Virus record (IMG/VR): IMGVR_UViG_2645727555_000019
Length of the DNA stretch: 11,743 nt
Source: a virus
Lineage: Duplodnaviria > Heunggongvirae > Uroviricota > Caudoviricetes
Reading direction: 5' to 3' (one strand)
The position numbers were made by a program. Numbering within the stretch: the stretch's first letter is position 1; each line of letters opens with the position of its first letter. Positions 1 to 3,000 of the stretch are shown here, one piece after another.

Positions 1-3000
1 TTCCGTTCATATGAGCAAAAGTGGTGTTGAAGAAACATCCGTTTTGTGATGTTTTTTTAATCTTTTTGGGGTTTTAATTCCTATCGATGAACGTTACGGG
101 CAATTTTCACAGAGTAGTTAAAAGCTACTCTGTGCTTGAACTCACGTAAAGTTTCACCTTCAAGTTTGAAGAAGTGTTTTTCCTCAATGAAACGACCTTT
201 GTTTTCGTGGTGATTCTGGCGAATACGAATAGCTTCTGTGCCGTAAAGGTGCGCCAAAAGTTCGGTAGTGATAACGGGGATCTGCTTGTAAGTAATCGTG
301 GAGAGTGTTTCAACAGAGATTTGAGTTGTCATAATGACGCCCTCGAGTGGTTTCTTAATAACTCACCACCGACGACGCCAATCGTCTGGTGGTGAACTGT
401 GCAGGGTTGGCGTAACCGGGAAACCGACCGGCGCGGATCTCTCCGCCCCCACACAGCCCACCATAATTCAGATGTGCGCGTGCATACGACAATAAAAAAC
501 ACGCTCGCGGCGTGTATCTGTCGCGGTCTCTATCCAGGACGCCAATCCCGACGCCAGATTTTGCTGGCGCGTGAGGAATATAGCCCCGAATAAATCATCA
601 CGTCAATCACCTTGTTTTCCTCGCACGATGTCTTAGCCACCGGATATCCCACAGGTGAGCCGTGTAATTGAAGGCTTTAACGTCAGATTCTTTTGGGATT
701 GGCCTGGGTTTATTTCTGGAACGTTTCGTTGGAAGGTAATTGCAGTTTTCACAGACTATATCGGTAATGCTTCGTCGCTGTCGTCTCATTCATACCTCCT
801 GTCGGTAAATCTGACACCCTGCTCCACAGCCCAGGAAGTTGTGTACTCAATCAGGCTTGCCATACGCTTCACGCTCATCTGCGCACTGCTTTCGCGGATA
901 TTGACGTATTCACCTTCAAGACCAGGCAAAACATCAGCTTCCTGTTTTGTCGCCACGGCATGACCGCTGATTAACAAAACTTTCCACTGTTCTGGTTTTA
1001 GCCATCTGCCGCACCACTGAACCTGTCGGGAGATATCAGCGACCATCGCGTGAAATTTGGCATTTTGATCGAGATTCCGCTTGTAATCGGTGATGCGGAT
1101 CGTAACGGGTTTGTCTTTATCGAGAGTTGTTGCAAGGATGGCGTTAATGGCGAATTGTTGCTGCTGCTTACTTCGGAGGAAGATAGTCTGGTTCATTATT
1201 CCCTCTCACTGGATTTTCCCAACAAAAAAGGAGCCGAAGCTCCTTTAGTTTCAGAATTCAAATTGTCTTGCCCGTAGGCTTTTCAGCATTGGCATGGCCC
1301 GCTGGATAACGGAACTTGACATGTCGAGACGTGTTACCTCCCTCAGTAGCGCGTCTCTGTTCTTCGTCACCATGTAGATGGTCTCAAACGCAATGTCATA
1401 CAGCTTGTTCGTGTATGAGGAGTTCAGCTCTTTCATAATGGGATACAGGTGTTTGCTGATGTCCTGGGCTTTTTCCATCCAGAGCTGCATGTAGCAAAGG
1501 AGGATGATTTCTTCGGCTGTGAATTGTGGCTGAATCTGCGGCTGCTGTTCGGTTGGTGCTGTTTTTCCCTGGCTGAAATAGCAGTCTTCCAGTTTTTCGA
1601 ATACCTCCCACGCCCGATCGGTTTCGAGCATTTTTGCGTGACGGGCTGCGCCGCGTTCTGTCCAGAGGATGAGGGAGCGGGCATTTTTACCAACTAACCC
1701 GATTGTTTCGGGTCTGTTCTTAAACTCGCGTAATTCGTTTTTTTCAATTTTAAAGTAATGCTTTCCGGGCATGAATCGCGTCGTGTTGTTCAGAAAGTTA
1801 TCAGAAATGTTTTTGATTTTTGTTCCGTAAAGGTGAGCCAACAGTTCAGTAGTAATTACGGGGATCTGGTTATAGGTAACAGGGGAAAGGTTTTCGACAG
1901 AAATTTGAACAGCCATAATGACCTCGCGTTTCGATAATTTTTACCTCGCCACCGTCAGGTGCTAATCATCGTGGTGGCGAACTGTGCGGGGTTAGCACTA
2001 CCGGTCGAAACATCCGGCGAGCCTTTCGGCTCCCCCACACAGCCCGCCATAAATCGCGAATGTGACTGTGCTTAGCGCATAAAAAAACCGCCAGCGCGGT
2101 TATGCACCGTTTCGATATCCGGGGTGCTAATCCCGACGCCAGGTTTTGCTGGCGCGTGAGGAATATAGCCCCGAACACGCGACGTTGTCAAACTGATGGC
2201 ATTGCAGATCCCTACGCAATGTAACACTATGTGTTATACATTAATAACGGAACAAAAAATGCGCATTTTTAAAAACGCCTGGTTTGAGCGACTTGCACGC
2301 AAAACAAAATATCCGACCAATCACTGCGCGAAATTGTTAAACAGGCTGATAACGGGCTTATCTCAGCAAACCTGGGTAACGGCGTTATCAAGCAACGTCT
2401 GCCACGAGTCGGTGGCGGCAAATCTGGCGGTTATCGCACAATCATTTTCTATCGCGTCGGCACAAGGGCCTTTTTCGTATATGCATACGCAAAAAATGAA
2501 CGTGAAAATATAACCGCTACTGAGGAAAGTGCATTTCGGAAGGGGCTCCTCACGTACTCAATCTAACAGATGAACAACTGGCACAACTGATTCTACAGGG
2601 TCAGTTTACGGAGGTACCCAATGAGTAAAAATTACCGCAGTGATGCGCTTGCATCCGTACATGAAATGATGGAATCGCTTCATGATATCGGCGCAGTAAC
2701 GAAACAGACTATGCGAGAATTCGATGAAACTTGTCTCCAGCCAGCGCCGGTAATGTCTCCGGAAAGGATCCGTGCACTGCGCGAACGAGAGCATCTGTCT
2801 CAACCTGTTTTTGCCAGATACCTCAACGTCAGTAAAAACCTGATATCAGACTGGGAACGTGGTGTAAAACGGCCGGGAGGTGCCGCTCTTCGCCTTCTTT
2901 CAGTCGTAGAGAAAAACGGAATCCAGGTAATATCATGATACTCCAATACAACAAAACCCGCCGAAGCGGGTTTTCATTAGAAGCACCTTTAGTTTTGCTG

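Follow-up and report, generated by a model that had tools for sequence, protein, structure and literature searches.

The 11,743-nt (11.7-kb) window analysed here, from the Caudoviricetes record IMGVR_UViG_2645727555_000019 of IMG/VR, is by its sequence a lambdoid prophage of Escherichia coli. Two cassettes within its nin region each carry a ~270-nt non-coding module, at ~330-606 (copy 1) and 1914-2191 (copy 2), with a mean column identity of 83% over the RNA region. Both RNA modules and all their elements lie on the minus strand. Our data support the view that both copies are genuine C4/IsrK modules and that their two-part addresses differ; the class of mechanism is already known. It is likely that each copy is a self-contained C4/IsrK-type switch placed before an ORF6N-family antirepressor gene, and two separately addressed circuits are predicted.

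Both copies scored above the gathering thresholds of three Rfam families, isrK, c4-a1b1 and C4. The C4 model (RF01695, threshold 45 bits) matched at full length, over model positions 1-87, with 66.7 bits in copy 1 (385-468) and 75.1 bits in copy 2 (1970-2054). The isrK model (RF01394, threshold 50 bits) gave 75.5 bits at 494-570 and 74.3 bits at 2081-2155, and c4-a1b1 (RF03163, threshold 46.7 bits) gave 50.5 bits at 531-583 and 47.4 bits at 2116-2168. Each IsrK-type short RNA is bounded by a promoter-like site and an intrinsic terminator. A consensus scan placed the former at 577-606 in copy 1 (TTGACG, 18 nt, TATATT; 10/12 matches), where the -10 hexamer ends ~6 nt ahead of the first base of the isrK match, and at 2162-2191 in copy 2 (TTGACA, 18 nt, TATATT; 11/12 matches). 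Within the short RNA, hairpin 1 (552-570 and 2137-2155) is followed by the a1 hairpin (535-550 and 2120-2135) and by the terminator (494-515 and 2081-2101), in which a stem, ACACGC/GCGUGU at 499-515 or AACCGC/GCGGUU at 2086-2101, precedes a T run. The minimum-free-energy folds of the C4 RNAs (-44.5 kcal/mol in copy 1 and -49.1 kcal/mol in copy 2) have the architecture of Rfam C4, a long outer stem around two hairpins and then an unpaired 3' stretch ending AACCC, and both C4 RNAs end in CACCA, as in phages P1 and P7. Among 68 distinct homologues, pairing in the three C4 helices reaches 97.1%, 92.3% and 97.9%, and both partners have changed in 7, 5 and 3 of the pairs. A first-pass annotation of this DNA had listed two further hairpins that differ between the copies and still pair. 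Of these, the stem at 430-447 and 2015-2032 is C4 hairpin I (GCGGA-GAGA-UCCGC at 433-446 and GAGCC-GAAA-GGCUC at 2019-2032), and the terminator stems keep six pairs.

The isrK and c4-a1b1 models match the same DNA, at 494-583 and 2081-2168 of the window, and the annotated a1/b1 region of P1 (L002 3218-3312) gives a sub-threshold isrK match of 35 bits. In Rfam, isrK stands outside the C4 clan (CL00128), and a recent review lists IsrK and c4 as separate entries.

The addresses of the two copies are matched within each copy. The window contains exactly two instances of the a-site decamer of copy 1, GATTGGCGTC (RNA: GAUUGGCGUC), at 538-547 and 374-383 (0.03 expected), and exactly two of that of copy 2, GATTAGCACC (RNA: GAUUAGCACC), at 2123-2132 and 1958-1967 (0.02 expected). 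Each decamer is confined to its own copy, and a1 equals a2 over 10 nt in both. Between the members of each pair lies a complementary heptamer, ACGCCAA (407-413) or GTGCTAA (1992-1998). In RNA terms, a1 is UUGGCGU at 539-545 in copy 1 and UUAGCAC at 2124-2130 in copy 2, the same heptamers form a2 at 375-381 and 1959-1965, and a' is ACGCCAA in the unpaired stretch of the copy 1 C4 and GUGCUAA within the copy 2 C4. The copies differ at three of the seven a-site positions, as G to A, G to A and U to C in the targets and as C to U, C to U and A to G in a', and a perfect 7-bp match is kept in each. The first-pass annotation had proposed just these substitutions in three elements changing in concert, with Watson-Crick pairing kept within copies, and its proposal was borne out by counting the decamers and heptamers in the sequence. 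Its elements correspond to those of the P1/P7 c4 system: a1, which the second IsrK hairpin carries in its loop, is the small RNA (sRNA) element of that annotation, a' is its leader a' element, and a2 is its loop near the ribosome-binding site. The terms sRNA and leader suit the IsrK literature, but the element assigned to the leader lies inside the C4 antisense RNA itself, and in the P1 model the RNA acting in trans is the one carrying a'.

A second covarying trio, b1/b'/b2, had escaped the first-pass annotation. In copy 1, b1 (GAGACCG, 524-530) lies between the a1 hairpin and the terminator and pairs with b' (CGGUUUC, 420-426) in a duplex that includes one G·U, and b2 (GAAACC, 349-354) is 4 nt upstream of the Shine-Dalgarno sequence GAGGG (340-344). 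In copy 2, UCGAAACG serves both as b1 (2108-2115) and as b2 (1927-1934), 1 nt upstream of the Shine-Dalgarno sequence GAGG (1922-1925), and b' is UGUUUCGA (2005-2012). In both copies b' is in the loop of C4 hairpin II and b2 is just 5' of the Shine-Dalgarno sequence. The b sites differ between the copies in length and flanks and are matched within each copy, and b' pairs with b2 over 6 bp in copy 1 and over 7 bp plus one G·U in copy 2. Thus a' and b' are complementary to a2 and b2 of the downstream leader, with b2 at the ribosome-binding site, as is typical of C4 targets. The target leader of copy 1 (330-394) contains the a2 hairpin (364-394) and reaches the antirepressor ATG at 330-332; that of copy 2 (1914-1979) contains the a2 hairpin (1947-1979) and reaches the ATG at 1914-1916. 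On this layout the specificity determinant is two-part (a plus b), as it is in P1/P7. The 5' strands of the a2 hairpins (CACCACC and CGCCACC) double as the 3' end of the C4 outer stem (364-394 against 385-400 in copy 1; 1947-1979 against 1970-1985 in copy 2), so that an unprocessed transcript should be able to form either the a2 hairpin or the C4 stem base, but not both.

A larger set of homologues was named by the first-pass annotation as the place where compensation could fail. A pattern scan of viral contigs yielded 113 unique modules, all with full flanks, among which 22 a' heptamers occur. An exact complement of a' was found upstream in 99/113, downstream in 108/113 and on both sides in 96/113, compared with 68/10090 upstream and 31/10090 downstream when a' was set against the flanks of modules with a different a'. 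Pairs were counted on a 69-sequence MAFFT alignment with 500 shuffles and slid controls. For a1-a', 96.0% of the cells were paired and 111 showed double changes (shuffle mean 25.2), and the covariation score was 0.588 (0.131 in shuffles). The a'-a2 positions were 90.8% paired, with 96 double-change cells (26.1 in shuffles) and a score of 0.474 (0.142 in shuffles). In neither case did any of the 500 shuffles score as high, and the slid controls stayed at or below 0.16. Compensation in a1-a' and a'-a2 therefore holds in the larger set. The same alignment misaligns IsrK hairpin 1 (27% paired) and the terminator (48%), and these values were not counted against the two hairpins, which have the support of the Rfam model and of direct inspection.

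The b' loops were taken by an explicit stem search from 96 modules. A complement of at least 6 nt was present in b2 for 90/96 and in b1 for 72/96, and across modules, as a control, in 6.3% (b2) and 2.6% (b1). The a and b types assort independently: 53 combinations of a type and b loop occur among the 96 modules, and 63 among the 113 when a 20-nt b region serves as proxy. The ~100 sampled modules contain no fewer than 22 a types and 38 b loops. A degenerate pattern scan of genome contigs added further a types. About 28 of 120 hits passed the a1/a2 test, and the others were mostly chance matches in unrelated phyla; the genuine modules come from Kluyvera, Pseudomonas, Vogesella, Halomonas, Symbiopectobacterium and others.

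It is very improbable that the conserved region is instead protein-coding, as a leader peptide or an N-terminal extension, or that the decamers are plain DNA repeats with no role in RNA pairing. In 65/113 modules the frame from the C4 AUG runs on without a stop for 60 codons or more, in frame with and into the downstream gene, and in a contig with three tandem modules (L030, 9289-11266) a single open reading frame (ORF) of ~220 codons spans every 656-nt repeat from end to end, IsrK terminator included. However, the length of the ORF from the C4 AUG varies from 14 to more than 60 codons, the stems and the intermolecular a pairs show compensatory double changes, and the Rfam covariance models score well above threshold. 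Direct DNA repeats cannot account for a third, reverse-complementary element, a', that changes in step. On these grounds both the coding and the DNA-repeat explanations were rejected. The open frame in 65/113 modules may explain why these RNAs are overlain by 'hypothetical protein' annotations.

The comparison with P1/P7 c4 made in the first-pass annotation proved to be one of homology, since the Rfam scores are above gathering in both copies and alignment with P1 and P7 gives the same six-element layout. The P1 genome record annotates a1, b1, c4, a2 and b2 upstream of icd-ant, and C4 is annotated as a 77-nt RNA in P1 and P7. In those phages C4 is a stable ~77-nt RNA that is released from a precursor by RNase P and acts in trans. 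The fold and the order are the same as in the window (promoter, a1, b1, C4 with b' then a', a2, b2, ribosome-binding site), and the downstream genes are likewise annotated as antirepressors. P1 and P7 differ from each other at a1 = a2 (TTGACAG and TTAGCAG, respectively), a' (CTGTCAA and CTGCTAA), b1 (GTTAGTGC and GATTGTGC), b2 (GTTAGTGA and GATTGTGA) and b' (CACTAAC and CACAATC). This amounts to 2 nt per a site and 2 nt per b site, whereas the window copies differ by 3 nt in a and have shifted b sites. According to reviews, P1 and P7 are heteroimmune through c4, and repression by c4 was likewise shown there.

There are also differences from P1/P7. No icd-like ORF was found between leader and antirepressor in either copy, where the leader goes straight to the ATG of the ORF6N antirepressor and b2 lies at that gene's own Shine-Dalgarno sequence; an icd-like ORF is a feature of the P1 operon and not of the C4 RNA family. 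The antirepressor of the window is of the ORF6N/P22_AR_C type, unlike that of P1/P7, and no operator for the P1 C1 repressor is expected in the window. Unlike in P1/P7, the a1/b1 segment ends in a strong intrinsic terminator, and a1/b1 is therefore predicted to be made as a separate short RNA. Finally, P1 and P7 carry their two specificities in two related plasmid prophages, whereas here both are found in one lambdoid prophage.

Because the differences between the copies are matched in both the a and the b sites, recognition by each C4 is predicted to be confined to the leader and the decoy of its own copy. Duplex energies were computed from short excised elements by one procedure for the window copies and for P1/P7, and are given as sums for a2 and b2. 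Whole-molecule RNAduplex runs of C4 against IsrK or leader gave large, uninformative energies that are blind to intramolecular structure, and were not used. The own energies are -19.1 kcal/mol for copy 1 (a'-a2 -10.3, b'-b2 -8.8) and -17.9 kcal/mol for copy 2 (a'-a2 -9.0, b'-b2 -8.9). The cross energies are -11.3 kcal/mol for the C4 of copy 1 on copy 2 and -9.6 kcal/mol for the C4 of copy 2 on copy 1. For P1/P7 the own energies are -26.5 and -26.6 kcal/mol and the cross energies -14.5 and -17.7 kcal/mol. The discrimination between own and cross is thus ~8 kcal/mol in the window and 9-12 kcal/mol for P1/P7. Since the cross energies of the window are weaker than those of P1/P7, orthogonality is a reasonable prediction, and by these calculations each RNA probably controls its own gene only. 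Mismatch between the copies, which the first-pass annotation had expected in both directions, applies to one of them: the a' of copy 1 meets the targets of copy 2 with three A·C mismatches, but the a' of copy 2 meets the targets of copy 1 with three G·U wobbles. Cross-pairing is asymmetric for this reason, and all three a differences are transitions. We infer that C4 is processed from these transcripts, that it represses at these ribosome-binding sites and that cross-regulation is lacking.

Several points weigh against two separately addressed circuits of this kind. Through its three G·U wobbles, the a' of copy 2 reaches -11.2 kcal/mol on the a1 of copy 1 and -4.9 kcal/mol on its a2, and the b' of copy 1 binds the b2 of copy 2 (-8.0 kcal/mol) nearly as well as its own (-8.8 kcal/mol) because they share a GUUUC/GAAAC core. 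The calculations thus leave some one-way cross-talk between the copies possible, and such short-element energies ignore target structure, kinetics and any effect of Hfq. The antirepressor gene of copy 1 is disrupted by an insertion sequence (IS) element, so that only one of the circuits can give protein here. In addition, a study of the related locus in the Salmonella prophage Gifsy-1 attributes regulation to IsrK acting as an activator by way of an upstream ORF, and not to repression by a processed C4 (PMC4825925).

The model that we regard as most likely merges the pictures from P1 and Gifsy-1. The near-consensus sigma-70 promoter would fire, and most transcripts would end at the intrinsic terminator to give a ~77-nt IsrK-type RNA with a1 and b1. 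Read-through transcripts would carry the ~85-nt C4 fold, with a' unpaired and b' in the loop of hairpin II, and would go on into the antirepressor leader, with a2 in a hairpin loop and b2 beside the Shine-Dalgarno sequence. By pairing with a2 and b2, C4 would deny ribosomes access to the leader, so that the antirepressor stays off. Competition for a' and b' may come from the short a1/b1 RNA or from its sequence in cis, and may in this way set the threshold of derepression. According to the summary by Weinberg et al. (PMC2864571 supplement), competition between a1/b1 and a2/b2 was already an idea of the original work on P1.

The IsrK/STnc1160/orf45-anrP locus of Gifsy-1 has ~80% DNA identity to copy 1, its a type (UUGGCGU/ACGCCAA) is identical to that of copy 1, and AnrP is an ORF6N protein like the antirepressors of the window. 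Rfam found isrK, c4-a1b1 and C4 in Gifsy-1 (L245 1511-1709), and orf45/STnc1160 scores 69 bits as C4. When the published numbering is counted from the A of ACGCCAGC, G28 and G31 fall within a1 and C159 and C162 within a'. The double mutants G28A/C162U and G31A/C159U restore structure and regulation in Gifsy-1 (PMC4825925), and because they map to a1-a' they are experimental proof of a1-a' pairing for the address type of copy 1. The pairing of the middle hairpin of IsrK is found in both copies of the window, as a1 and a' of copy 1 are identical to those of Gifsy-1 and copy 2 is a compensated variant. Binding of Hfq and activation of antirepressor translation in trans also belong to the description of IsrK. 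The b sites differ between Gifsy-1 (b' is UCGGUGAU) and the window, and Gifsy-1 has one module, after Q, whereas the window has two, flanking ninB and ninE. Satellite phage P4 offers a further likeness: its CI RNA, with seqA and seqC, is a processed leader RNA that base-pairs with complementary repeats lying on either side of it. In the IsrK paper this RNA is named as a structural homologue, but by the authors' description transcription of replication genes in P4 is terminated prematurely, and no antirepressor is controlled at the level of translation (PMC4825925).

Taken alone, the Gifsy-1 picture would mean that no C4 acts in trans. A cis a1-a' helix would trap the read-through mRNA in an inactive structure, a small upstream ORF translated from the conserved AUG would activate the antirepressor by translational coupling, and the two specificities would be those of activators. 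This model has experimental support in Gifsy-1, whose a type is that of copy 1 (PMC4825925). The published orf45 is the 45-codon ORF from the conserved AUG of C4 'UUAUGG', and both window copies retain an ORF from this AUG. However, orf45 overlaps the anrP start with its stop, and no such overlap was present in the window, where ORFs 33 and 31 codons long leave gaps of 30 and 38 nt, respectively, to the antirepressor ATG. In P1 the same frame stops after 14 codons. Nor does the model explain the repetition of a1 as a2, or the complementarity of b' in 90/96 modules to a site that abuts the Shine-Dalgarno sequence. The C4 region of Gifsy-1 gives rise to STnc1160, a stable RNA formed by processing (PMC4825925), IsrK and STnc1160 are abundant in Salmonella lysogens (PMC7067206), and such a processed RNA, like the annotated 77-nt C4 of P1 and P7, also speaks against it. 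Coupling of this kind as the whole mechanism in the window is therefore less likely, and we consider it rather unlikely compared with the merged model.

The finding of a pair of specificities in one prophage is modestly novel and has parallels elsewhere. A hidden Markov model search found at least two C4 modules in 9/117 viral loci, and six arrays were confirmed by Rfam, including one in a Symbiopectobacterium genome (L167). The co-resident modules of every array, in the 9 viral loci and in L167, differ in a', b' or both and never share the two, but with 0.025 identity expected per pair this is not significant (0 identical-address pairs seen, ~0.3 expected; underpowered). In L030 (9388-11355), three tandem 656-nt units each consist of isrK, C4 and a Rha-like gene. 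Their 3' coding parts are 100% identical, and it is at a1, b1, b', a', a2 and b2 that the units differ. Among relatives with another a type on the copy 2 backbone, changes are ~5-fold enriched in the 21 nt of the a sites (6/21 against 13/228, p=0.002; 9/21 against 23/228, p=3e-4).

The cassettes also occur singly, and the pair probably arose by mosaic recombination. The copy 1 module alone, 99.3% identical, is found in VT2-Sakai and many Shiga toxin (Stx) phages, including Stx1 phages, and copy 2 with ninB/ninE is found in PhiR5_2. It is quite possible, if short of probable, that mosaicism is the whole explanation: the cassettes would have come from different phages through recombination in the nin region, their matched differences would reflect separate histories and not insulation selected here, cross-talk might be tolerated, and copy 1 would be a decaying remnant in the window. 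The copies are indeed old paralogues, as the RNA-region identity given above and 48% amino-acid identity of the antirepressors (Ant; copy 1 in its intact form) indicate, and the gene of copy 1 is cut; the lack of shared addresses among co-resident modules, being not significant, also leaves room for this explanation. On the other side, this very pair is maintained intact in at least 35 complete E. coli genomes. The differences in L030, lying precisely at the six address elements, and the a-site enrichment on the copy 2 backbone also argue against a mere by-product, and suggest that addresses are under selection or exchanged as units. Tentatively, and without regarding it as the probable case, we propose that C4/IsrK modules use two-site combinatorial addresses and that these are under diversifying selection that lets several switches coexist without cross-talk within a prophage and across a polylysogen.

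The two cassettes differ in the state of their genes. The copy 2 antirepressor gene (1251-1916, minus strand) encodes 221 aa with ORF6N and P22_AR_C domains (Pfam). An intrinsic terminator (1227-1246, minus strand) lies directly 3' of it, so that cassette 2 is a self-contained promoter-to-terminator unit inserted upstream of ninB. The copy 1 antirepressor gene (81-332, minus strand) has a Pfam ORF6N domain and is truncated to 83 aa. The end of an IS91-family element occupies 1-88 of the window and is inserted in this gene, cutting Ant after codon ~81. Positions 1-88 match 126 places, all in E. coli plasmids, multi-copy and adjoining IS91 transposase. The junction at 88/89 abuts GAAC, the reverse complement of GTTC, the classic IS91 target. 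The intact copy 1 Ant of FORC_069 has 227 aa with ORF6N and P22_AR_C, and it is in their C-terminal halves that it and the copy 2 Ant are least alike. The two-cassette arrangement is 99.9% identical in FORC_069, ML35 and others, and the at least 35 complete E. coli genomes mentioned above cover at least 80% of it.

From high to low coordinates, the window contains a cI-like S24 repressor (9182-9889, plus strand), cro, cII and replication genes, DUF genes and hok/sok, a Doc-family toxin, a RelE/ParE-like gene with a helix-turn-helix (HTH) gene, cassette 2, ninB, ninE and cassette 1. The Pfam NinB and NinE genes lie between the cassettes at 786-1196 and 607-789 (minus strand). Between the replication genes and the nin region, 2196-4206 holds three toxin-antitoxin-type cassettes: the RelE/ParE-like gene and HTH pair (2196-2938, plus strand), the Doc/Fic-family toxin gene (2989-3483, minus strand), and hok (3882-4094, minus strand) with sok RNA (4032-4206, minus strand; Rfam 116.9 bits).

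In the searchable literature, which covers few subscription journals, neither tandem modules of differing specificity nor an analysis of a/b covariation across the family was found. Three things, none of which was found described there, are regarded as modestly new: the two specificities in one prophage, the combinatorial diversity of the addresses, and the identification of IsrK with a1b1 and of orf45/STnc1160 with C4. This mapping of elements joins two literatures, that of Gifsy-1 IsrK/orf45 and that of P1 c4/a1b1. If the addresses are indeed under such diversifying selection, the sRNA activator IsrK and the antisense repressor c4 of P1, with a1/b1 as competing targets, would be two halves of one mechanism, and the pair in the window and the triple array of L030 would be natural sets of orthogonal RNA regulators. 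The diversity of addresses across the family would then be a ready source of such regulators. If the addresses are orthogonal, two different antirepressors would be under separate control within one lambdoid prophage. That would matter for the induction and cross-induction of prophages in E. coli strains with many of them, including the Shiga-toxin phages that carry a nearly unchanged copy 1 module.

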